From positions 1-10,789 of the IMG/VR virus record IMGVR_UViG_2917849834_000008: a stretch of 10,789 nucleotides of DNA; one strand, 5' to 3'. The DNA comes from a virus (taxonomy: Duplodnaviria > Heunggongvirae > Uroviricota > Caudoviricetes). This document shows, piece by piece, positions 1 through 10,789 of the stretch (position 1 is the stretch's first letter; each line of letters opens with the position of its first letter). The notes under the pieces were generated by a model. The model made no database searches. It saw nothing but the letters and a program-made list of their open reading frames with translations, and had not been told where the DNA came from. The position numbers and the translations under genes were made by a program.

Positions 1-1056
1 TCCAACACCGCACAGAGCCATAACGGCGACCTGTACGTCGATGAGATTTTCTGGATCCCGAATTTTCAGGTACTGCGTAAAGTGGCATCAGGTATGGCCT
101 CACAGAGTCACCTGCGCTCGACCTATTTCTCCACCCCGTCCACGCTGGCGCACGACGCCTACCCGTTCTGGTCGGGTGAACTGTTTAACCGGGGACGCGC
201 CAGCGCCGCCGAACGCGTGGAAATCGACGTCAGTCATAACGCCCTTGCCGGTGGGCTTCTCTGTGCGGACGGCCAGTGGCGGCAGATTGTCACCATTGAG
301 GACGCCCTGAAAGGTGGCTGCACACTGTTCGACATTGAGCAGCTCAAACGCGAAAACAGCGCCGACGATTTTAAAAACCTGTTCATGTGTGAATTTGTTG
401 ACGACAAGGCGTCGGTGTTCCCGTTCGAGGAGCTGCAACGCTGCATGGTCGACACGCTGGAAGAATGGGAAGACTATGCGCCGTTTGCCGCGAATCCGTT
501 CGGCTCCCGTCCGGTATGGATTGGTTACGACCCGTCACACCGTGGCGACAGTGCCGGATGCGTGGTGCTGGCACCGCCGGTGGTGGCCGGTGGCAAATTC
601 AGAATACTTGAGCGTCACCAGTGGAAAGGCATGGACTTTGCCACCCAGGCGGAATCCATCCGCAAACTCACCGAAAAATATAACGTCGAATACATCGGTA
701 TTGATGCCACCGGCCTCGGTGTCGGCGTGTTCCAGCTCGTGCGCTCGTTCTATCCCGCCGCGCGCGATATCCGCTACACGCCGGAAATGAAAACCGCAAT
801 GGTGCTCAAGGCAAAAGACGTTATCCGTCGTGGCTGTCTGGAATATGACGTCAGCGCCACCGACATCACCAGCTCGTTCATGGCTATCCGCAAGACCATG
901 ACCAGCAGCGGACGCAGCGCCACCTATGAAGCCAGCCGCAGCGAGGAAGCCAGCCACGCCGACCTCGCCTGGGCGACCATGCACGCCCTGTTAAATGAGC
1001 CACTCACCGCCGGTATCAGCACTCCGCTGACATCCACCATTCTGGAGTTTTACTGA
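1..1056 (+). CDS. P: Terminase large (ATPase) subunit, P2 gpP-like; 3' portion only, 5' end lies upstream of the window
   Basis: Frame 1 is open from position 1 with no stop and runs into ORF 82..1056 (the GTG at 82 is not the real start). Stop TGA 1054-1056 overlaps the Q start (TGATG). The order P -> Q -> cos matches the P2 left end. Family assigned from recalled similarity to P2 gpP, not from a search. Confidence 0.8.
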   Translation, partial: SNTAQSHNGDLYVDEIFWIPNFQVLRKVASGMASQSHLRSTYFSTPSTLAHDAYPFWSGELFNRGRASAAERVEIDVSHNALAGGLLCADGQWRQIVTIEDALKGGCTLFDIEQLKRENSADDFKNLFMCEFVDDKASVFPFEELQRCMVDTLEEWEDYAPFAANPFGSRPVWIGYDPSHRGDSAGCVVLAPPVVAGGKFRILERHQWKGMDFATQAESIRKLTEKYNVEYIGIDATGLGVGVFQLVRSFYPAARDIRYTPEMKTAMVLKAKDVIRRGCLEYDVSATDITSSFMAIRKTMTSSGRSATYEASRSEEASHADLAWATMHALLNEPLTAGISTPLTSTILEFY

Positions 1057-2090
1057 TGAGCAAGAAAAAAGGGAAAACACCGCAACCTGCGACAAAAACA
1101 ATGACCGCCAGCGCCCCGAAAATGGAGGCATTCACCTTTGGTGAGCCGGTGCCGGTACTCGACCGCCGTGACATTCTGGATTACGTCGAGTGCATCAGTA
1201 ACGGCAGATGGTATGAGCCACCGGTCAGCTTTACCGGTCTGGCAAAAAGCCTGCGTGCTGCCGTGCATCACAGCTCACCGATTTACGTCAAACGCAATAT
1301 TCTGGCTTCAACGTTTATCCCGCACCCGTGGCTTTCCCAGCAGGATTTCAGCCGCTTTGTGCTGGATTTTCTGGTGTTCGGTAATGCGTTTCTGGAAAAG
1401 CGTTACAGCACCACCGGTAAGGTCATCAGACTGGAAACCTCACCGGCAAAATATACCCGCCGTGGTGTGGAAGAGGATGTTTACTGGTGGGTGCCGTCCT
1501 TCAACGAGCCGACAGCCTTCGCGCCCGGCTCCGTGTTTCACCTGCTGGAGCCGGATATTAATCAGGAGCTGTACGGCCTGCCGGAATATCTCAGCGCCCT
1601 TAACTCTGCCTGGCTGAATGAGTCGGCCACGTTGTTCCGCCGAAAGTATTACGAAAACGGCGCTCATGCCGGATATATCATGTATATCACCGACGCATTG
1701 CAGGATCGCGATTACATTGATTCACTTCGCGAAAACATGGCCAGGTCGAAAGGCCGCAATAACTTTAATAATCTGTTTCTCTATGCCCCACAGGGAAAGC
1801 CAGACGGCATCAAAATTATCCCGCTCAGTGAAGTGGCGACAAAGGACGATTTTTTTAATATCAAAAAATCCAGCGCCGCTGACCTGCTGGACGCGCACCG
1901 CATCCCCTTTCAGTTGATGGGCGGCAAGCCGGAGAACGTCGGGTCGCTGGGTGATATTGAGAAAGTGGCTAAGGTCTTTGTCCGCAATGAGCTTATCCCG
2001 TTACAGGACAGGATTCGCGAGATAAATGGTTGGCTCGGTCAGGAGGTCATCCGCTTTAAAAACTACTCACTGGACACTGACAACGGCTGA
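1056..2090 (+). CDS. Q: Portal (capsid vertex) protein, P2 gpQ-like
   Basis: 344 aa ORF, the size I recall for P2 gpQ. Start ATG overlaps the P stop by 1 nt. Followed by a strong terminator and, about 170 bp downstream, the cos site, as in P2. Typical high-GC enterobacterial coding composition. Confidence 0.85.
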   Translation: MSKKKGKTPQPATKTMTASAPKMEAFTFGEPVPVLDRRDILDYVECISNGRWYEPPVSFTGLAKSLRAAVHHSSPIYVKRNILASTFIPHPWLSQQDFSRFVLDFLVFGNAFLEKRYSTTGKVIRLETSPAKYTRRGVEEDVYWWVPSFNEPTAFAPGSVFHLLEPDINQELYGLPEYLSALNSAWLNESATLFRRKYYENGAHAGYIMYITDALQDRDYIDSLRENMARSKGRNNFNNLFLYAPQGKPDGIKIIPLSEVATKDDFFNIKKSSAADLLDAHRIPFQLMGGKPENVGSLGDIEKVAKVFVRNELIPLQDRIREINGWLGQEVIRFKNYSLDTDNG

Positions 2091-2095
2091 ACATC

Positions 2096-2117
2096 GCCGC
2101 CTGCGGGCGGCTTTTTT
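2096..2117 (+). terminator. Rho-independent terminator downstream of Q
   Basis: Perfect 6-bp GC stem gccgcc (2096-2101) / ggcggc (2106-2111) with 4-nt loop tgcg, followed immediately by TTTTTT (2112-2117), 6 nt after the Q stop codon. Confidence 0.7.
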
Positions 2118-2259
2118 ACACCCCGCCATCACGCCCTCACACGCTCACCACAGCACAAAACAGCCCGCAGACACACCAACGCCCCGGCGAACAATCTAAA
2201 CGCCATCACGACGTGCTCAGACGCTGAAAAAATAAAATCAGCACCACCGCCAGCGCGCA

Positions 2260-2278
2260 GTGCTTTCCCCGCCTCGCC
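2260..2278. other. cos: Phage cohesive-end site (cos), P2-type 19-nt sequence, present in joined form
   Basis: gtgctttccccgcctcgcc at 2260-2278 is the exact reverse complement of GGCGAGGCGGGGAAAGCAC, which I recall as the 19-nt P2 cohesive end. It sits between the Q 3' end and the old/tin-equivalent region, as expected for a prophage or circular form. Confidence 0.6.
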
Positions 2279-2565
2279 CGCCCGCTTCGTGAGGCGGTTT
2301 TAATGCACTTGCATGAATGGCCTAAAGTACGCCAGTTCTGACACTGCAAAGTTAGAAAATGCCTGACAGGCACATGCAAAATGATGCATCAAATGAATTC
2401 ATACTGAAATAACCCCCCAACCACATAGCTAAGCATCCACATCTTTACATCTAACTCACTAAATTCTCTTGAATAAATCAAAAAGTTAGGTTAGATCTCT
2501 GTCGTTGAGGAAGGCAACCTCGAACACTTAAGGCTAAATATAAAAAGAATAAAAAGAGGGATAAA

Positions 2566-2853
2566 ATGAAATTAAAACTCAAAAACGTAACAAGCTATCA
2601 TAAAGAATATTTTACTGAGTTAGATTTATCCAAAAAAATAAACATATTGTATGGACAAAATGGTTGTGGAAAATCTACCATATCAAATTATTTTTACAAT
2701 CCTAAAGACACCGCCTATAAGGAATGTGTATGCGAACCCATCGATAATTATCGAACTCTAGTCTACAACTCAAAATATATAGAAGATAATTTTTATAATG
2801 CAAAAGAGCAAAAAGGTATATTTACCCTCAGTCAAAAAAAATGCAGAAATTGA
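2566..2853 (+). CDS. N-terminal fragment (Walker A / P-loop) of an AAA_13-like ABC/SMC-type ATPase, RloC-like; frame broken at an A8 tract
   Basis: Good SD (aagaggg, 2554-2560) 5 nt before ATG 2566. Translation contains the P-loop GQNGCGKST. Only 95 aa, then stop at 2851-2853; the downstream ORF in the -1 frame carries the rest of the ATPase motifs. Very AT-rich, unlike the flanking phage genes. Confidence 0.6.
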   Translation: MKLKLKNVTSYHKEYFTELDLSKKINILYGQNGCGKSTISNYFYNPKDTAYKECVCEPIDNYRTLVYNSKYIEDNFYNAKEQKGIFTLSQKKCRN

Positions 2854-4775
2854 AAAAAATACTATCTGAAAAAGAAGAGCTAAACAAATCACTAGCACAT
2901 CAGCATAAAGAAAAAAAAGAATTTATCGAAAAACTTCATGAAGCGAAAAACAAAAAAGAGCAAGAGTGCATAAATTCCATATGGAATAAGACCAAAGACA
3001 TAAGAAGTTCAGAATTAAAACAATTAATGAAAGGTCAAATAGGAAGCAAAGCCACTTTCTATTACCATCTAAAAAAGTATACTCCACAAACTGATATTGA
3101 TATAAAATCATTAATACAATCTTATAGCAAACTTCTCGAGTTTAAAGGAAAAGAAATACCTCTGATAACTCCTTATAAAGGATATGTTTTATCTGAAGAA
3201 ACTCAAAAAACATTATCCACACCAATTATTGACTCTAGCAACAGCTATTTATCTGAAGCAATAAAAGAGCTACAAAATATTGATTGGATTAAACAAGGCA
3301 AAGAGCAATATTTAAATGGAGAAATTTGTCCATTTTGCCAAAGGGACACAATAGATGATAATTTTATTAAAGCCATTGAATCTATCTTTGATGAAACATA
3401 CTCAAGAAAAGTAGATCAAATACAACAAATAAAACTATCTTATGATAATGCCATTAAAAATCATCATGAAGAAATAAAGAGTAACATTTTATCATGTGAG
3501 GTGATAAACCAAGACGAAAAAGATAAAAGTCTTTCATATGTTAAGGCGTTAGAAACTATTGCAGAAAAAAACATTAAATTATTGGATAATAAAATAGAAA
3601 ATCCATCTATAAGCATTGTGCTGGAGTTTGAAAAGTCGATAGAGGAAAAACTATTAGAAGATATAGAACAATACAACAATAAAATTAACGAGTTCAATGA
3701 CAAAGTAAAAAGATTTAATAATAGCGAAATAGATATTCGCGAAAAGATGTGGGCAGCAATCAGAGACTTATGTAGCGCGGAATTTGAAATACTATCAGAC
3801 TGCGAAAGAAACTTTCAAGAAAAATATGAAAACGCTGCATCCTTCATGCAGGAAATAAAAAGAAAAGAAGAGATCAACACAAATGAAATCAATGAACTAA
3901 GAAATAAAACATCAAGTGTAGATGCAACAATAGATGCAATAAACTCACGACTTAAATTTCTTGGCATCTCTGGTTTTAGCATTGATAAACACGCCGAACT
4001 CAAAGATAAGTATATAATATCCCGCGATGGAAACAATAGAAAACAAGATGTATATCGGTCATTAAGCGAAGGTGAAAAAACATTAATAACGTTTCTATAT
4101 TTTTTAGAATGTTGCAAGGGTAAAACAAATGAAAATGATAATGATATGCGTGATAAACTCATAGTTATAGATGATCCTATATCAAGTCTATCTCAAAACT
4201 ATGTTTTCGACATAGCATCCATGATCCATCATGACATAATTGAAAAAGGCATTTCATCAAAAATAATAATCCTCACCCATAATCTTTATTTCTTCCATGA
4301 GTTAATAAAACTCGCCTCTAAAAAAGGAATAAACTTTAAACGGGACTACTTTCTTGGCAGAATAAACAAAAATGAATTTAGCACCATTAGTGCTATAGAT
4401 AAAAAAAGTGTGCAAAATGAATACCAATCCCTTTGGCAAGTATTAAAAGATGCAAAAGAGAAAAAAATCAACAAAATAATAATCCCAAATATTATGAGAA
4501 ATATACTTGAGTATTACTTTGCATTTGTTCATAGAACTGACGCATTAGAGGAAAAGCTTACTGAATTAACAAATGATGAAAATAACAGCCATTTCCGTGC
4601 CTTTTACAGATATATAAACAGAGGCTCTCACTCCGACGCAATAAATATAACAGACATGGGCGATATTGAACCTGAGAAATACTTAGAACTCTTGCACAAA
4701 ATATTCAGAATGACTGGTGATGAGAAACATTACTTAACAATGATGGGTGAAGAAGAGGTAAATGTTACCGCTTAG
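2841..4775 (+). CDS. Main part of RloC-like AAA_13 ATPase: coiled coil with CxxC zinc hook, ABC signature-like and Walker B motifs, C-terminal putative anticodon-nuclease-like domain
   Basis: 644 aa ORF. Lys/Glu-rich predicted coiled-coil region (aa ~1-400) with CPFC at aa 163-166 (nt 3327-3338). LSEGEK (aa 408-413), DKLIVIDDP (aa 438-446) and ILTHN (aa 477-481) match ABC-type signature / Walker B / H-loop. C-terminal ~150 aa contain MRNILEYYFAFVHR...SHFRAFYRY. This frame is open from 2799 and overlaps the upstream ORF across the A8 tract 2834-2841. Confidence 0.7.
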   Translation: MQKLKKILSEKEELNKSLAHQHKEKKEFIEKLHEAKNKKEQECINSIWNKTKDIRSSELKQLMKGQIGSKATFYYHLKKYTPQTDIDIKSLIQSYSKLLEFKGKEIPLITPYKGYVLSEETQKTLSTPIIDSSNSYLSEAIKELQNIDWIKQGKEQYLNGEICPFCQRDTIDDNFIKAIESIFDETYSRKVDQIQQIKLSYDNAIKNHHEEIKSNILSCEVINQDEKDKSLSYVKALETIAEKNIKLLDNKIENPSISIVLEFEKSIEEKLLEDIEQYNNKINEFNDKVKRFNNSEIDIREKMWAAIRDLCSAEFEILSDCERNFQEKYENAASFMQEIKRKEEINTNEINELRNKTSSVDATIDAINSRLKFLGISGFSIDKHAELKDKYIISRDGNNRKQDVYRSLSEGEKTLITFLYFLECCKGKTNENDNDMRDKLIVIDDPISSLSQNYVFDIASMIHHDIIEKGISSKIIILTHNLYFFHELIKLASKKGINFKRDYFLGRINKNEFSTISAIDKKSVQNEYQSLWQVLKDAKEKKINKIIIPNIMRNILEYYFAFVHRTDALEEKLTELTNDENNSHFRAFYRYINRGSHSDAINITDMGDIEPEKYLELLHKIFRMTGDEKHYLTMMGEEEVNVTA

Positions 4776-5002
4776 GCCGCATATTACCGATTCGGGTAAG
4801 AACGACGGTGCTTACGCACCGTCTCCCAGCGCCCAAAGCGGTAGCGGTTGTACTGTCGTACATTCACTAACCTTAACATGAGATTATCTCCATGCCGGCA
4901 CCATTGTTGCCAATGGCAGCCTTTATACCCTTTGTATAAAGCTAATACTAAGAGCATTGCTAGGTAGATTTCCCAAGCGGTAACGTGGGTATTCTAAGAC
5001 AA

Positions 5003-7291
5003 TTACTTAAAAAGATCAAAGCCACTAAAAAACTGCTTCCACTCACCACTTATTGGATATATAAACTTTCGTCCGTCAAACTTTACCGTCGCGCCACGCG
5101 CCAGCGCCTCAAGCTCCCATCGCTGCGGCCTGATACCGTTCTGAGCAAGGTCAACGCGGATACGGGTAATTTGCATTCTTTCCGACCGGGTCAGTCTGGC
5201 CGATGGTGCAATTTCATGTGGTTTTAACGGGCTTCCGTTTCTTTGCTGACGGTTTGGCGTTCTCAGGTCGTGTTTTAATGCGCCCCTGAGCGCCCTCACG
5301 ACCTCCGGTTCACTCCATTCAATAACACCGTCATCAACCAGATTAAGCACTGCTGCGGCGTGCTCAGAAGGTGTGGGAGCCGATAACGAAGTATTACCGC
5401 CGGTGAGCTTTCCACAGTTATTGACAGGACTCCGAGGCGCGGCGATGCCGCTTTTTAAAGTCAAAGGCTCAACGACCGGAACTTTCGGCACAATGCGCCA
5501 GTCCGTCGTTCTGGTGATATGAATATGACGCGCGCCGAGATGCGGCGCGTAAATGCCGACCACTCTCTCGACTTCTTCCTCGTACTCGTTAACGTCATCC
5601 GACGTGCTACGGGCAACCCTGACAGTCTGACAATCGCGCGGGACATTTGCCCCGCCCTGCGCGCTGATATACAACGCAAAATCACCACTGTCTGCGGCGG
5701 CGCGTGCAGCCTCGACGCGTTCGTCAAACTCATCAGCAATGCTGACGCCGCGAGGCAATTTGCGTAGTTCACGGTAAGCCCCCATTGTCGGCAGACCAAC
5801 CGTTTTAAATTGCGGAATGCGCCACGTTGACGCCCATGCGGTAACAGCCGCAGCAGTATCTTTCAGCGGCCTGCCGGTATCGTTATCGAGCTGACCATCC
5901 AGTGCATAGCCATCGATGTTTTTTGAGATGTATTTCGCGATATATCCCGCAGCACCGCCCCGGTTAAGGTGTTTTGCCTGAAAACGGTTTCGCGCGGCTC
6001 CTCTTTCGTCGCCATCCTCTTTGAGCGCATAGCGACGCATGATTTCGATAATCTGGTTACGCTGGCGTGGATTACAAAAAAGCATCATATGCCAGTGCGG
6101 CGTTCCGTCGTGGTGTGGCTCGACGACACGCAAACCGTAGACCTGTAAATCATTATCCTTGAATGCCGTGCGCATCAGGCTCCAGATATGGCAGAGATAA
6201 CGCTGCGCATCCTTTGGATTAAATGCCTCATCGTTCCAGCCGTGATTTAGCTGGACGGTTTTACTTTCGCCTTTTCCGACCTGACGTGTCGGGTGATACT
6301 TTGACGGCGTGGTCAGCGTGATAAACATCCCCACATCACCCTCTGCGGCGGCGTAACGCTCAATACCGGCAATGGTGTTCATCAGCTCCATCCGGCGAAT
6401 TTCAGGATTAGAAATACTGCCCATCACCTTACTGATAAGGTCGATGCGCTCGCCGGTTTCCCTGTTTTCAAGGTCACACGATTTAAGAAATTCCAGATTT
6501 GCCTGGCGGCGCGCACGCACATCACGAATGGCGTGTTTACTGGCATAAGGAGAACGGTCTTTATTGACCTCCCCGACAGCTATCAGTAACGCTTCATGCC
6601 AGCGCATACGCTGGCCTTTAAGCTGATGAGTCCACCACTCATCGTTAAACAGACGGGCAATTGCAGAATATGCCTGCCTCGTGGTCATCTGTCCTTTACG
6701 GTATTTTTTCCAGTAGAGAGGGGAAATATTGAAAGCACGTGCAGCGCCAGCAACATGACCATAGAGGTGAGCCTGCGCCTCATCCGTAAACAGCGATTCT
6801 TTTTCGCCATGCGCATCCCCCCAGGCATCGCTGAGTTCCTCATACATCATGAAAAGCTGCGATGAGATACGGGCAGCAAACTTTTTCAGCTCCTTGTCAT
6901 TCATTCCCGGCAGGCGCGCATAGTGGTCACGCTCTGCCAGAAACAGTAACGACGCGTCGGTGTTCATTTCATGGCGCTGATTCACACGCTCAATGCGCGG
7001 CCATAAACGACGCTGAAAAGTGGATGTGAGGAAATAAAACCCGTGCACCGGGCTTTTATTGCGCCGGATGTAGTCATAGCGTGAAGTAAACAGCGAACGC
7101 AAAAAGTAAGGCAGGCGGTTAATCGTGGATAAAACACCTTGCACCTGACGCATCTCGTCACGTGTAAGGGGTCTTTCGCGCCCGACGGCCTCGCGTGGCG
7201 CGTTCCATGCATAAGCACCGGTAAACGTCTTACCGGTGCCTGCGGCAAATGCTGACGGAGGGACAAAACGCCCGGAGGCTTTAACGGCCAT
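5003..7291 (-). CDS. A: Replication initiation protein, P2 gpA-like rolling-circle initiator
   Basis: Large minus-strand ORF (track 5003..7333, 776 aa with a TTG start at 7333). The first ATG at 7289-7291 starts MAVKASGRF, which I recall as the P2 gpA N-terminus, and gives ~762 aa. Contains the HxH-like segment PHHDGTPHWHMMLF. Located between the cargo and the B/cox region as in P2. Confidence 0.85.
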   Translation of the reverse strand: MAVKASGRFVPPSAFAAGTGKTFTGAYAWNAPREAVGRERPLTRDEMRQVQGVLSTINRLPYFLRSLFTSRYDYIRRNKSPVHGFYFLTSTFQRRLWPRIERVNQRHEMNTDASLLFLAERDHYARLPGMNDKELKKFAARISSQLFMMYEELSDAWGDAHGEKESLFTDEAQAHLYGHVAGAARAFNISPLYWKKYRKGQMTTRQAYSAIARLFNDEWWTHQLKGQRMRWHEALLIAVGEVNKDRSPYASKHAIRDVRARRQANLEFLKSCDLENRETGERIDLISKVMGSISNPEIRRMELMNTIAGIERYAAAEGDVGMFITLTTPSKYHPTRQVGKGESKTVQLNHGWNDEAFNPKDAQRYLCHIWSLMRTAFKDNDLQVYGLRVVEPHHDGTPHWHMMLFCNPRQRNQIIEIMRRYALKEDGDERGAARNRFQAKHLNRGGAAGYIAKYISKNIDGYALDGQLDNDTGRPLKDTAAAVTAWASTWRIPQFKTVGLPTMGAYRELRKLPRGVSIADEFDERVEAARAAADSGDFALYISAQGGANVPRDCQTVRVARSTSDDVNEYEEEVERVVGIYAPHLGARHIHITRTTDWRIVPKVPVVEPLTLKSGIAAPRSPVNNCGKLTGGNTSLSAPTPSEHAAAVLNLVDDGVIEWSEPEVVRALRGALKHDLRTPNRQQRNGSPLKPHEIAPSARLTRSERMQITRIRVDLAQNGIRPQRWELEALARGATVKFDGRKFIYPISGEWKQFFSGFDLFK
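5421..5440 (-). other. ori: Putative origin of replication (gpA nick site) inside the A coding region
   Basis: ttgacaggactccgaggcgc on the + strand is the reverse complement of GCGCCTCGGAGTCCTGTCAA, which I recall as the P2 ori nick region. The P2 ori is known to lie within gene A. The match is exact but the reference sequence is from memory. Confidence 0.45.
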
Positions 7292-7556
7292 GTGAGCCAA
7301 AAGCCTCTGAACAACGCTTGCTGAGTTGCTCAACCTGCGCGTTTAAATCAGCAAAAGATTTTGCGCTTCCGGTCAGAATATCGTGATGCATCATGCCGGA
7401 AACGAGCTGGCTTAATTTCGGGTAATAACCAACCACCGCCAGCCATTCCTGACCGGCGTTTTTACCGCTTTCCGCTCTCTTTTTCTCGTGGAGAATAAAC
7501 TGAAAGCTGTCACTGGTAACGACATAACGTTCGCCAATGTCAATACGAATACTCAT
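7281..7556 (-). CDS. Hypothetical protein; by position corresponds to the small ORFs between B and A in P2 (orf83-like)
   Basis: 91 aa ORF with ATG start; its stop overlaps the A start region and its start overlaps the upstream ORF stop by 4 nt (ATGA). Composition matches neighbouring phage genes. Confidence 0.55.
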   Translation of the reverse strand: MSIRIDIGERYVVTSDSFQFILHEKKRAESGKNAGQEWLAVVGYYPKLSQLVSGMMHHDILTGSAKSFADLNAQVEQLSKRCSEAFGSHGR

Positions 7557-7783
7557 GCCGTTCTCCGGTAATGTTTGTTTTTTGCTTCAAAGACTGACTG
7601 ACAGGAAACACAACGCGTGGCTGACGGATAAGCCGCACGACGGGCAGCAGGTATTGGCGCGTCACACTCTTCGCAAACCAGCGCAGAAGCACCGCAATGT
7701 TTTACCCTTGCCGCGTTAATCTGGCGCTCCAGTAATTCAGCCTGTTGTTCCTGAATAAAATCTACGTTGTCCGGCATTATCAA
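7553..7783 (-). CDS. TraR/DksA-family C4 zinc-finger protein (P2 orf82-like)
   Basis: 76 aa ORF with CEEC-x17-CVSC (CxxC-x17-CxxC), the TraR/DksA zinc-finger spacing. 4-nt overlaps with both neighbours. TTG start at 7783 per ORF track. Confidence 0.7.
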   Translation of the reverse strand: MIMPDNVDFIQEQQAELLERQINAARVKHCGASALVCEECDAPIPAARRAAYPSATRCVSCQSVFEAKNKHYRRTA

Positions 7784-8082
7784 CTCCTTTTATCGTTAAG
7801 TTTCCTGGATACATCAGCGCAATAACTGGCGAGTTCTGTCGTTAATTTTGTCAGTTCATCCACTGAGGAAATTTGCTTGTGGAATACAGCGCGTTTAACA
7901 AGTAAATTGACCACATCAGACAGGAGATTTAATTCATTCTGATAAATCGCGATAACAGATTCAGTTATGTCGCGTTTTTCTTTATCAAGACAAAGTTGAA
8001 TAAGAGATAAATCACCATTTTCCATAACGGCGATTTTTAAGGCGTTATTCAGTAATACAACTGAATGAGAGCAGGACATCAA
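7780..8082 (-). CDS. Hypothetical protein (P2 orf81-like by position)
   Basis: 100 aa ORF, translationally coupled by 4-nt overlaps to the upstream (8079..8303) and downstream (7553..7783) ORFs. Confidence 0.5.
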
Positions 8083-8303
8083 AGCACCTCCCCGCGAGAC
8101 AATCCGATATTGTGAAATTTTTCCGACTCCTGACTGAGCAGCTCGACTATCTCCACGCGGGATAACTCCGCCTTTGTGATGTGGCGAATCATGGCGTCAA
8201 GATGAGAAGAAAAGCGCGTCGCAGCGTCGGCCTGTGCTTCGGTTCTGGCCTGTTGCAGCAGTAATGCGTATTTACCGCACTGATTTTCAGAAACTGTATG
8301 CAT
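8079..8303 (-). CDS. Hypothetical protein (P2 orf80-like by position)
   Basis: 74 aa ORF, first of the four-ORF coupled chain downstream of B; start ATG at 8301-8303. Confidence 0.5.
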
Positions 8304-8366
8304 GACTTTCTCCAGGCAAAAAGAAGCCCCGCACGATTAAGTGCGTTAAAAACTCTGGTTAATTAT

Positions 8367-8873
8367 TTAATGCAGATATTGCTCTGGTTTTACCGACGTC
8401 AGAATTGTCGGTGCATACTCAAACAGGCTGAATAATTCACGTAATGCACGGAATAAAGCATCACGCCAGTAACATGACTCTTCATTAATTCGCCAGTATG
8501 GCTGGTTGAATTCTTTTTCAGTCAATCCGGCATGCATAAATAAAGTACGGCGCTGACTGACAGTTAAAAAGCTAATATATGCATACTCACTTGCACCGAC
8601 CTGACGGCGTTTTGAGAATGCCCCACGCAATTCATCAATTGCACAAACCAGCCGTTCACGTTCGACGTCGTTCATTTCTTCAAAACGCATCGTTGCGTGA
8701 CGTTGTTTTAACTGCGCATGAAAGCAAACTGTTAGCCGTTCGCGCTCCATCATCTGATTATAATAATCACATGTATCCTGCCAGCGAGGGACGGCCAGAT
8801 GCTTACCAATTATCCGGCGCATAGCTGCTGGCTGTTTTTCAACGAGATTGAGCGTCATCACTGTCATTTCCAA
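8367..8873 (-). CDS. B: Replication protein B, P2 gpB-like (helicase-loader-type)
   Basis: 168 aa ORF (P2 gpB is about 166 aa as I recall) in the expected position between the cox/orf78 and orf80-83/A equivalents, same strand as A. Confidence 0.65.
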   Translation of the reverse strand: MEMTVMTLNLVEKQPAAMRRIIGKHLAVPRWQDTCDYYNQMMERERLTVCFHAQLKQRHATMRFEEMNDVERERLVCAIDELRGAFSKRRQVGASEYAYISFLTVSQRRTLFMHAGLTEKEFNQPYWRINEESCYWRDALFRALRELFSLFEYAPTILTSVKPEQYLH

Positions 8874-9061
8874 ACCCTCCGGCTTTTCAGAAAGGTCAGA
8901 GCCTTTTTTAAGGGACTCTGTTTTTTGGTACGGATAATGATTCCCTTGCGTCCCTTCCCGTGGGTGATGGTGAAGTCAATCGCCCTGGGGCTTTCGTTAC
9001 GCAATAACTGAGCAATACAACGCGGCTCATTCATAATCACAACCCCATCCACAAAAGCCAT
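8864..9061 (-). CDS. Hypothetical small protein (P2 orf78-like by position)
   Basis: 65 aa basic ORF between cox and B; overlaps the B start by 10 nt. Confidence 0.45.
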   Translation of the reverse strand: MAFVDGVVIMNEPRCIAQLLRNESPRAIDFTITHGKGRKGIIIRTKKQSPLKKALTFLKSRRVWK

Positions 9062-9324
9062 GCATCACGCTGTTCAACCGGTCGGTTATAAAACGCCTCA
9101 CGTACAGCGCGATTAAACTCAGGAATGAAAACCCATTTTTCACCGGCACGAGCCTTCGGTTTGCAAGGATCACGCAATTCAATAATTGGTAATTTATTTG
9201 CCTTCACCATTTCACTGACGGCTGTCTTTGGCTTCCCTAATAAATCAGCAAATTTATCCATATGAACCGCATCAAGCGGATACTGAATCACATAATTTTC
9301 AGCGTCCATATATGGTACCCTCAT
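9037..9324 (-). CDS. cox: Cox-like protein (excisionase / early-promoter transcriptional regulator)
   Basis: 95 aa ORF, first gene of the leftward early operon and divergent from C. The translation (...KLPIIELRDP...RAGEKWVFIPEFN...RDAWLLWMGL) follows the pattern I recall for P2 Cox (...KLPVID..DP...RAGEYWVYLP...RDGWLMWLGL). True start may be the internal Met (MDAENY). Confidence 0.65.
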   Translation of the reverse strand: MRVPYMDAENYVIQYPLDAVHMDKFADLLGKPKTAVSEMVKANKLPIIELRDPCKPKARAGEKWVFIPEFNRAVREAFYNRPVEQRDAWLLWMGL

Positions 9325-9386
9325 AGGATCCAGCCCTTTCTAAACCACTCAAAACCGTTTAGACGCTGGTTTATTCTCAAATCAAT

Positions 9387-9434
9387 GGAACCTATATAGG
9401 TTCCAGTTTTGAGGGAATTTAGTCCCTATATAGG
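9387..9434. promoter_or_regulatory. Immunity switch region: candidate C-repressor/Cox operators (repeated cctatatagg) overlapping the divergent early and repressor promoters
   Basis: Perfect 18-bp palindrome ggaacctatataggttcc at 9387-9404 and a second copy of the 10-mer cctatatagg at 9425-9434 (34 bp centre to centre), in the 121-bp gap between cox (start 9324) and C (start 9446). TATATA cores could double as -10 elements. Confidence 0.45.
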
Positions 9435-9445
9435 CACCATGTCAA

Positions 9446-9739
9446 ATGAAATTAAGCGAAAAGATTAAGGCCTTGCGTGAGGCGGAAGGGCTAAGCCAAT
9501 CAAAATTCTGTGAAATCATAGAGTTACCGCTAAGCACACTTAAAAAATATGAAGGAGGAAACTTTGAACCCGGTGGCACAGCTTTGCTAAAAATCACTAT
9601 GCATCCCACATTCCAAAAATATGCTCTATGGCTTATGACAGATAAAACCGCGCCGGACGCAGGACAAATCGCACCGGCTCTCGCGCACATTGGGCCAGAG
9701 TCAACAGAGTCCAACCACTCCGCGAAAAGGATTGGCTAA
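9446..9739 (+). CDS. C: Immunity repressor, P2 C-like
   Basis: 97 aa ORF (P2 C is about 99 aa), divergent from cox and directly upstream of int. N-terminal HTH-like segment (LSQSKFCEIIELPLSTLKKYE) and C-terminal GQIAPALAHIGPE, which I recall as conserved in P2-family C repressors. Confidence 0.75.
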   Translation: MKLSEKIKALREAEGLSQSKFCEIIELPLSTLKKYEGGNFEPGGTALLKITMHPTFQKYALWLMTDKTAPDAGQIAPALAHIGPESTESNHSAKRIG

Positions 9740-9808
9740 CTCTATATAAAGATTACATTTTCACCATTTGCTACCAAGATGGTGAATACAGCGCCGGAGG
9801 GCTTTCTT

Positions 9809-10789
9809 ATGGCAATTAAGAAGCTCGATGATGGTCGCTATGAAGTGGACATTAGACCTCGCGGTCGCGACGGAAAACGCATCCGCAGGAAATTCGAAAG
9901 AAAAGCTGAAGCACTAGCATTTGAGCGATACACAATCGCCAATGCCAGTCAGAAAGAATGGGGAGGCCAGCGAGCAGACCGCCGAACTTTGAGTGAGTTG
10001 CTGGACATCTGGTGGAAATATCACGGGCAAAACCACGAGCATGGAACAAAAGAGTTTAATCATCTACTCAAAACCATCAGCGGCATAGGTGATATACCAG
10101 TGAGCCGGATGAGCAAAAGGGCTTTGATGGATTATCGTTCCATGCGACTACGTGATGGTATCAGTGCCGCAACGATAAACCGTGACATGTACCGATTATC
10201 CGGCATGTTCACAAAATTAATTCAATTGGATGAATTTTCCGGGCAACACCCAATTCACGGACTGCCGCCACTGGCGGAGGCCAACCCTGAAATGACGTTC
10301 CTGGAAAAAGCAGAAATCGAAAAACTGTTAAATGTTTTGGCTGGTGATGACTTACTTGTCGCGCTTTTATGTCTGAGCACTGGAGGAAGATGGACGGAAG
10401 TTGCCACGCTAAAACCAGCACAGATTACAAATTGCAGGGTTACCTTCCTGAAAACCAAAAACGGTAAAAAGCGAACCGTGCCGATTTCTGAGGAACTGGA
10501 GAAAAAAGTTAAAGAGGAGGCCAGCGCCAAATTATTCAAAGTTGATTATGAGAAATTTTGCGGGATTTTACGCAGAGTGAAACCTGATATACCACCCAAT
10601 CAGGCAACCCACATCCTGCGGCATACATTCGCAAGCCATTTCATGATGAATGGGGGCAATATAATCGCACTGCAACAGATTCTGGGACATGCGAGCATTC
10701 AGCAGACGATGGCCTATGCGCACCTTGCGCCTGACTACCTGCAAAATGCCGTCGCTCTGAATCCACTAAAAGGCGGAGTGACGTTATAA
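9809..10789 (+). CDS. int: Tyrosine site-specific integrase, P2 Int-like
   Basis: ORF track gives 9779..10789 (336 aa). The ATG at 9809 (MAIKKLDDGRYEV...) is preceded by a strong SD ggaggg (9796-9801) and is the more likely start. C-terminal catalytic region has the tyrosine-recombinase pattern ...ATHILRHTFASHF...LGHASIQQTMAYAH. The stop coincides with the last base of the window, so attL/attR core should lie just beyond. Confidence 0.85.
   Translation: MAIKKLDDGRYEVDIRPRGRDGKRIRRKFERKAEALAFERYTIANASQKEWGGQRADRRTLSELLDIWWKYHGQNHEHGTKEFNHLLKTISGIGDIPVSRMSKRALMDYRSMRLRDGISAATINRDMYRLSGMFTKLIQLDEFSGQHPIHGLPPLAEANPEMTFLEKAEIEKLLNVLAGDDLLVALLCLSTGGRWTEVATLKPAQITNCRVTFLKTKNGKKRTVPISEELEKKVKEEASAKLFKVDYEKFCGILRRVKPDIPPNQATHILRHTFASHFMMNGGNIIALQQILGHASIQQTMAYAHLAPDYLQNAVALNPLKGGVTL

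Follow-up and report, generated by a model that had tools for sequence, protein, structure and literature searches.

The stretch of DNA analysed here, 10,789 nucleotides (nt) of a virus of the class Caudoviricetes (positions 1 to 10,789 of IMG/VR record IMGVR_UViG_2917849834_000008; hereafter, the window), carries a P2-like immunity switch in which the genes cox and C point in opposite directions and are separated by a 121-bp spacer. Two copies of a 10-bp element, CCTATATAGG, lie in this spacer, and one of them forms the core of a longer perfect palindrome. The two copies are likely to make up a bipartite operator through which the repressor C shuts off the early promoter Pe, an assignment that rests on comparative sequence evidence.

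The spacer between cox and C

An earlier reading of the window, made from its sequence only (the sequence-only reading), had named the flanking genes cox and C, in agreement with the profile and structure matches. The first gene of the early operon, cox, encodes the lytic repressor and excisionase; its open reading frame (ORF) is open to 9324, and the PGAP start at 9309 was taken from identical prophages. The product of C matches the 'C protein' of PDB entries 2XCJ and 2L49 with an E-value of 1.9e-21 across residues 3–97 (phmmer). The gene int starts at 9779 on the plus strand, which gives the order cox (minus), C (plus), int (plus), with C at the head of the lysogenic operon and opposed to the early operon led by cox. 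The features of the switch are as follows:

9037..9309, minus strand: cox, first gene of the early operon (Pfam Phage_Cox, E 8e-24)
9386..9405, no strand: O2, promoter-distal candidate C operator site, a 20-bp perfect palindrome (sequence, statistics, WPhi homology, substitutions in lytic isolates)
9416..9421, minus strand: Pe −10 hexamer TAAATT, with an 18-nt spacer (consensus; the WPhi homologue is TATATT, from primer sequences in PMC1904263)
9420..9439, no strand: O1, promoter-proximal candidate C operator site, inside the Pe −35/−10 spacer (sequence, WPhi homology, substitutions in lytic isolates)
9440..9445, minus strand: Pe −35 hexamer TTGACA (consensus; homologous to the annotated WPhi Pe)
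9446..9739, plus strand: C, immunity repressor of 97 amino acids (WP_000777029.1) with a helix-turn-helix, HTH (P2 C structure matches, Pfam HTH_3)

The sequence-only reading had reported a perfect palindrome of 18 bp, GGAACCTATATAGGTTCC, at 9387–9404 and a second core at 9425–9434. Read directly in the window sequence, both sets of coordinates are exact and the palindrome is indeed perfect, although its true length is 20 bp: TGGAACCTATATAGGTTCCA (9386–9405) has one extra base on each side. No other perfect palindrome in the window reaches a half-length of 8, and when the window was simulated with a first-order Markov model, a half-length of at least 10 appeared anywhere in only 1.25% of runs. 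If one mismatch is tolerated, CCTATATAGG is found at just two places in 10.8 kb (0.17 expected), namely the O2 core at 9391–9400 and the O1 core at 9425–9434. Each 10-bp core is a perfect palindrome by itself, and the two are spaced 34 bp centre to centre. The 20-bp stretch that surrounds the O1 core, TAGTCCCTATATAGGCACCA (9420–9439), agrees with the O2 palindrome at 15 of 20 positions (counted by eye). When O1 and O2 are compared as 12-mers, the direct and inverted orientations tie, each with 10/12 as its best match; with the flanks included, a direct repeat CCTATATAGG(T/C)(T/A)CCA can be read in the two sites (13/15). Between the O1 core and the start codon of C (ATG at 9446) there are 11 nt, and the AGG of this core (9432–9434) is the only Shine-Dalgarno-like element upstream of C.

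The only match to the sigma-70 consensus in the region 9200–9600 is on the minus strand and combines TTGACA, an 18-nt spacer and TAAATT (10/12 positions). Transcription from it is predicted to start near 9409 and to be directed toward cox. The record of phage WPhi (AJ245959) annotates an experimentally mapped Pe at the homologous position of its alignment with the window, and the tgtcaa that adjoins the C start (the Pe −35 read on the plus strand) is kept in 31 diverged lineages. O1 occupies the spacer between the −35 and −10 hexamers and O2 lies just downstream of the predicted start, so that the two cores flank the −10.

Homologous switches, prophages and lytic isolates

WPhi, which represents immunity class III of the P2-like coliphages, is 72% identical in DNA and has a homologous C (56%). 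The two switches share the order cox – Pe/Pc – C – int, and in both the Pe −35 TTGACA abuts the C start. In the alignment with AJ245959, the two WPhi half-sites (each GTCACCAATA) fall on the positions of O1 and O2 at the same 34-bp spacing, one in the −35/−10 spacer and one past the start. The WPhi half-sites are 10 bp long, 34 bp apart centre to centre, and flank the Pe −10; mutants in a single site stay repressed whereas double mutants escape, so that both sites are needed in vivo (PMC1904268, PMC1904263). The differences lie in the site itself (GTCACCAATA in WPhi, CCTATATAGG in the window) and in residues of the recognition helix and adjacent to it (S30/G, L32/V, K34/N and N39/H, window/WPhi). 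In addition, the WPhi sites have been described as non-palindromic direct repeats, whereas the cores in the window are palindromic and O2 is a 20-bp perfect palindrome, and a 19-nt indel deletes from the window the region homologous to the WPhi Pc −35.

The repressor of P2 belongs to the same family (43%), and P2 likewise has two repeated sites flanking the Pe −10, convergent Pe and Pc, and Cox as a counter-repressor. Its sites, in contrast, are 8 bp long (ATCTAAAC in window orientation), 22 bp apart and non-palindromic (PMC2995052). P2 C also starts at an ATG homologous to window position 9439, not 9446; in the window, the ATG at 9439 opens a 9-codon ORF only (9439–9468), which overlaps the real C start. 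Thus, the different operator geometry that had been suggested from the sequence holds in comparison with P2 but not with WPhi.

Repeats in the seven known P2-type classes are non-palindromic direct repeats (PMC2995052), and this is the one family-defining statement that does not hold for the window. It falls outside the WPhi immunity class, with a C that is 56% identical and a half-site CCTATATAGG instead of GTCACCAATA, and it has the WPhi-type geometry and the P2-type repeat layout around the Pe −10. Functionally and by descent, as judged from these comparisons, the element is a P2-type C/Pe operator with WPhi geometry and another recognition sequence, and the kind of system is not new. What does set the sites apart from those of the known relatives is their dyad symmetry.

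A scan of IMG/VR with an alignment of C returned 80 loci, each taken with 700 nt of upstream sequence. Lineages with a window-like recognition helix (L-S-T-L-K-K-Y-E and variants) have a related motif at both positions, 32–34 bp apart:

L042: C identity 85%; O2 ACATATAGGTTCCAT; O1 ACATATAGGTTCCAT
L044: C identity 75%; O2 GCCTATATAGGC; O1 CCTAAATAGG
L047: C identity 72%; O2 CATATAGGTTCCAT; O1 CATATAGGTTCCAT
L046: C identity 72%; O2 CCCATATAGGAACAA; O1 CCTAAATAGGAACAA
L058: C identity 69%; O2 TCCTATATAGGA; O1 TCCTAAATAGGA

L042 and L047 have plainly direct repeats and an O2 of no more than partial symmetry, and the O2 core of L044 and L058 is perfectly palindromic over 12 bp. Since a related motif is kept at both positions in these relatives, the element co-varies with the repressor while holding its place. 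The lack of conservation that the sequence-only reading had named as evidence against it was thus not seen.

Over 51 sampled P2-type spacers, the best O1/O2 12-mer match was inverted in 29 cases, direct in 15 and tied in seven, the chance of a match of at least 10/12 being ∼0.014 per orientation. Inverted examples among loci L021–L100 include the P37 group (TTAATGAC ... GTCATTAA) and the pair L068/L099 (GGTTTCCCTATGG and its reverse complement). Judging from these spacers, the 'direct repeat' rule for P2-type C sites may reflect no more than the choice of the three phages that were studied. The C protein of Yersinia phage P37 (L008, 446–736) has the look of a chimera, with an HTH half at the N terminus that is close to WPhi C (GIALGTLKNYEGGH) and a C-terminal half that is almost the same as in the window C, which suggests recombination inside C. 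The putative operator of P37 is unlike those of the window and of WPhi.

Natural variants of the switch were compared in an alignment of 14 near-identical relatives over 9000–9800. Yersinia phage L-413C derives from the temperate phage L-413, of which it has been described as a clear-plaque or lytic mutant (PMC3448106, PMC2893161). Its C protein is unchanged with respect to the window, and it carries G9388T in the O2 palindrome together with G9434T, which alters the last base of the O1 core; a third spacer change, A9417G, is found also in an Escherichia coli prophage. Bacteriophage R18C, which was isolated as a plaque-former and reported to be virulent (PMC6823313), has one change in the last base of the O2 core, G9400A, and one in the second base of the O1 core, C9426A. 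These two phages thus differ from the window, which has the wild-type prophage version, by one substitution per operator site. That two independent lytic lineages were each hit once per site agrees with the requirement for both sites in WPhi, where escape depends on the loss of both. Yersinia phage HQ103 (L016), another lytic isolate, has both sites intact and a 7-bp deletion in C, equivalent to 9602–9608, that truncates the protein (the annotated coding sequence is 186 nt); as read from its sequence, this truncation would be a simple explanation of its lytic behaviour.

Of 5426 complete E. coli genomes, 420 have the spacer at 95% identity or more, in every case on the chromosome. For each site taken separately, at least 97% (rounded) of the 420 prophages are identical. 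The 32-nt segment around O2 (9381–9412) is identical in 415 of them, and that around O1 (9418–9449) in 407. Synthetic 32-mers, each with both lytic-isolate substitutions of one site, were searched against the prophages (the O2 query matched 420 and the O1 query 416), absence being taken to mean that no prophage is closer to the mutant 32-mer than the wild type is. By this measure, the four lytic-isolate substitutions occur in none of the detected prophages. Other spacer polymorphisms do occur in prophages, such as the common C9364T and, in the Pe −10, A9416G or A9417G. In some E. coli prophages (L006, L007 and L026), A9416G, with or without A9417G, turns the −10 TAAATT into TAAATC or TAAACC. 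On sequence these are likely promoter-down changes, and such changes could lock the prophage in.

Taken together, the features of the sequence, the match to a promoter consensus, the homology of position with the WPhi sites, the conservation in prophages and the double-site substitutions in two lytic derivatives argue for O1 and O2 as the operator of C. The sequence-only reading of the cox–C region as the immunity switch, with the repeats as putative C operator sites, is very probably right: the sites are homologous to those of WPhi, flank the Pe −10, are invariant in prophages and are mutated in lytic isolates. By analogy with WPhi and P2, we envisage the following scheme. Pe, on the minus strand, would drive cox and the replication genes leftward. 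With O1 between the −35 and −10 hexamers and O2 just past the start, the 34-bp spacing of about three helical turns would put both sites on roughly the same face of the DNA. One C dimer would bind each site, and the dimers would cooperate, bend the DNA and exclude RNA polymerase; C binding, its cooperativity and its stoichiometry are all part of this proposal. Both sites would be required, and a phage would escape repression only with both of them damaged.

Several observations weigh against this assignment or against parts of the evidence for it. As of 2007, P2, P2 Hy dis and WPhi were the only phages with a located operator (PMC1904268). The prophage variants G9406T, C9438T and A9439G lie outside the 10-bp cores, but they come from the three of 18 variant prophages that were inspected. 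In L-413C, G9434T also removes the AGG, the sole Shine-Dalgarno-like element for C, and the phage has a private Cox substitution, P51L; the operator changes need not, then, be the whole cause of its phenotype. 'Virulent' is the word of the authors for R18C, with no lysogen plating reported (PMC6823313). Pc was not located, there being no plus-strand consensus promoter within 9200–9600. Finally, the O2 palindrome overlaps a dyad that is present throughout the family whatever the operator sequence (see below), and because of this symmetry alone is no evidence of protein binding.

The dyad at the Pe start and other readings of the repeats

The O2 palindrome stands at the apex of a longer inverted repeat:

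9375..9414, no strand: extended dyad or hairpin TCTCAAA ... TGGAACCTATATAGGTTCCA ... TTTGAGG, with O2 at the apex (inverted-repeat scan, RNA folding)

This segment is so placed that it would be transcribed from both Pe and Pc. Its RNA has a minimum free energy of −18.4 kcal/mol on the plus strand (z −4.59) and −13.1 kcal/mol on the minus strand (z −3.75). For 35 diverged spacers, RNAalifold found no structure in an automatic MAFFT alignment, and pairs were counted instead in a named helix of 10 bp at this place: 81% of its cells are paired as compared with 69% after shuffling (a level of 81% was reached in 0 of 500 shuffles), both-side changes are seen in nine of its 10 pairs, and helices slid from this position reach at most 61%. 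Covarying arms include CTGAAAAGG/CCTTTTCAG, CCGAAAAGG/CCTTTTCGG and CTCAAAAGG/CCTTTTGAG. The dyad is seen at about 625–665 of loci L042–L100 and at 399–426 of L001. In WPhi, most of the defined O2 is loop, enclosed by the arms AAAAGGT and ACCTTTT, and transcription from Pe was mapped to start 1–2 nt ahead of the stem. Thus, a dyad at the Pe start is a family-wide feature, with compensatory changes, and is independent of the operator sequence; no description of it was found in the accessible literature.

The palindrome could accordingly serve a hairpin, in RNA or DNA, and not C, which would then read the asymmetric direct repeat CCTATATAGG(T/C)(T/A)CCA. Such a stem-loop, at the 5' end of the Pe transcript or in the Pc leader, might act in messenger RNA stability, in pausing or in interference between convergent transcripts. 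Several of the above observations speak for it: the dyad recurs at the same position in ∼35 diverged P2-type switches with compensatory pair changes, the experimentally defined WPhi O2 lies mostly in the loop, and the 9375–9414 hairpin of the window folds on both strands with the energies given above. Furthermore, L042 and L047, with the same recognition helix, have perfect direct repeats (ACATATAGGTTCCAT and CATATAGGTTCCAT), an O2 that is partly palindromic and a retained outer stem. On the other side, wobble pairs in the helix show no strand bias (14 G.T versus 19 A.C) and a DNA dyad for a dimeric protein would look alike, so that an RNA hairpin and a DNA dyad cannot be told apart on this basis. 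Comparison of the minimum free energies gives a weak plus-strand bias (35 versus 16 lineages, which are not independent). Rfam yielded no family match, only a chance microRNA hit with E 0.5. The L-413C substitution G9388T falls in the left arm of O2, outside the direct-repeat consensus, which would fit either reading of that arm by C or disruption of the stem. We regard the hairpin as a serious possibility, though not the favoured one, and it is compatible with the operator assignment, competing with it only over the cause of the O2 symmetry.

A second account of that symmetry starts from the protein. The crystal structure of P2 C is a symmetric dimer resembling palindrome binders, and how it reads asymmetric repeats was left open (PMC2995052). 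Controller proteins of restriction-modification systems, such as C.Esp1396I, and the lambdoid 434 and P22 c2 repressors resemble P2 C structurally in being small HTH dimers, and they bind dyad-symmetric sites (PMC2995052); they differ in having no detectable sequence relationship past the HTH fold, other spacings (15 bp in C.Esp1396I) and another promoter architecture. In C.Esp1396I, one dimer binds each repeated palindrome (PMC2995052), and the sites in the window would suggest, by analogy, the same arrangement. We tentatively propose that, in this immunity type, what has been called a half-site is a complete site with dyad symmetry, bound by one symmetric C dimer, and that the true half-site is about TGGAACCTAT, while considering this somewhat less probable than its contrary. 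O2 can be written as TGGAACCTAT|ATAGGTTCCA and O1 as TAGTCCCTAT|ATAGGCACCA (15/20 in comparison with O2). In the numbering of this half-site, the substitutions of the two lytic isolates affect G3, C6, C7 and C6. One of the four, in the left arm of O2, lies outside the plus-strand direct-repeat consensus. This pattern would fit one dimer per 20-bp site. Family-wide, dyad symmetry of O1 is modestly enriched (32% versus 11% with at least 4/5 pairs); the CCTATATAGG clade contributes most of this enrichment, and the Shine-Dalgarno sequence of C is a confounder. Two overlapping constraints probably account for the full symmetry of O2, one being the reading of both arms by a symmetric C dimer and the other the family-wide hairpin or dyad.

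The remaining alternatives to a C operator fared far worse. The sequence-only reading had also entertained Cox as a ligand of the repeats. Cox does act in this intergenic region, and at high concentration P2 Cox spreads from Pc in the direction of Pe (PMC3936717). P2 Cox, however, uses boxes of ∼9 bp in at least six copies at intervals of 10–11 bp over ∼70 bp, with the consensus TTAAA(G/C)NC(A/C) (PMC3936717), not two 10-bp palindromes 34 bp apart. Repeats that resemble the core of this cox-box, and are nested, are located further left:

9339..9375, no strand: cluster of short TAAAC inverted repeats (TCTAAAC/GTTTAGA, TAAACCA/TGGTTTA), candidate Cox-binding and Pc region (inferred)

The common prophage polymorphism C9364T falls inside this cluster. 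Moreover, loss of a Cox site would favour lysogeny, opposite to the lytic phenotype of L-413C and R18C. On account of the motif type and the direction of the mutant phenotype, Cox operators in place of C operators are very unlikely.

The sequence-only reading had also considered the TATATA cores as possible −10 hexamers of face-to-face Pe and Pc. TATATA does resemble TATAAT, and P2-like regions do carry convergent promoters (PMC1904263), but the idea is highly improbable: neither TATATA has a −35 partner at 16–18 nt on either strand, the 10/12 consensus Pe with its TAAATT (9421–9416) puts one TATATA in the spacer and the other past the start, and the homologous WPhi promoter was mapped experimentally at the Pe position, with WPhi Pc more than 60 bp to the left, near the cox start. 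An intrinsic terminator or attenuator on a convergent transcript is just as improbable, since the 8-bp stem and 4-nt loop found in a simple scan, with the tail TTGATTTGAG on the minus strand and GTTTTG after the stem on the plus strand, would stop the essential early operon a few nucleotides past the start of the Pe transcript, WPhi, P37 and the other lineages have kept no U-tract behind the stem, and shuffled sequences already give 0.3 such hits per region; this candidate was rejected for its place at the 5' end of the early operon and its non-conserved U-tract.

Immunity type, distribution and significance

By its sequence the window is from a P2-like prophage of the L-413C immunity type. 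Its C is 100% identical to L-413C gpC, and over 9000–9800 it is 99% identical to Yersinia phage L-413C, Bacteriophage R18C, Peduovirus P24B2, FSL SP-004 and others, which with the same C are therefore of the same immunity type; only three of the 121 spacer positions differ from L-413C. These near-identical named phages and the spread of the spacer in E. coli make it a common and already sequenced type. Within one immunity class, C is at least 95% identical and the spacer can be aligned with the same half-site sequence (PMC3448106). With a C below this level of identity and a different site sequence, the phage should be heteroimmune to WPhi and P2. The distinct immunity specificity that the sequence-only reading had expected is in keeping with this, C being 43% and 56% identical to those of P2 and WPhi, with differences in recognition-helix residues and site sequence. 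No account of the operator of this immunity type was found in the accessible literature, although the repeats may have been noticed before; a full-text search with CCTATATAGG returned unrelated papers only.

Some features of the window fall outside the switch itself or are private to it. T at 9261 (Cox M17) occurs in the window alone, all 17 relatives compared having V17, and G at 9484 is synonymous and private among the relatives compared. A candidate anti-phage ATPase (PADLOC PDC-S06, E 5e-209; Pfam AAA_13) is encoded by ORFs 2566–2853 and 2841–4775 on the plus strand, in the moron hotspot between the portal gene Q (1056–2090) and gpA (5003–7333). It is split into an N-terminal ORF of 95 amino acids (profile positions 4–93) and an ORF of 644 amino acids (profile positions 97–724), which looks like a frameshift near 2841–2853, either in a pseudogene or through a sequencing error.

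About 8% of complete E. coli genomes carry the switch described here, and so does L-413C, a phage used in plague diagnostics. Knowledge of its operator would explain the lytic nature of L-413C and R18C by one hit per site, and could be used in engineering or vetting P2-like phages for diagnostics and therapy. The palindromic sites are a clean substrate for finding out how the symmetric C dimers of the P2 family read DNA. If each site does bind one symmetric dimer, the window sequence would show the position of the second monomer of a P2-family C dimer, and would thereby address the puzzle, posed by the P2 C structure, of a symmetric dimer on asymmetric direct repeats.

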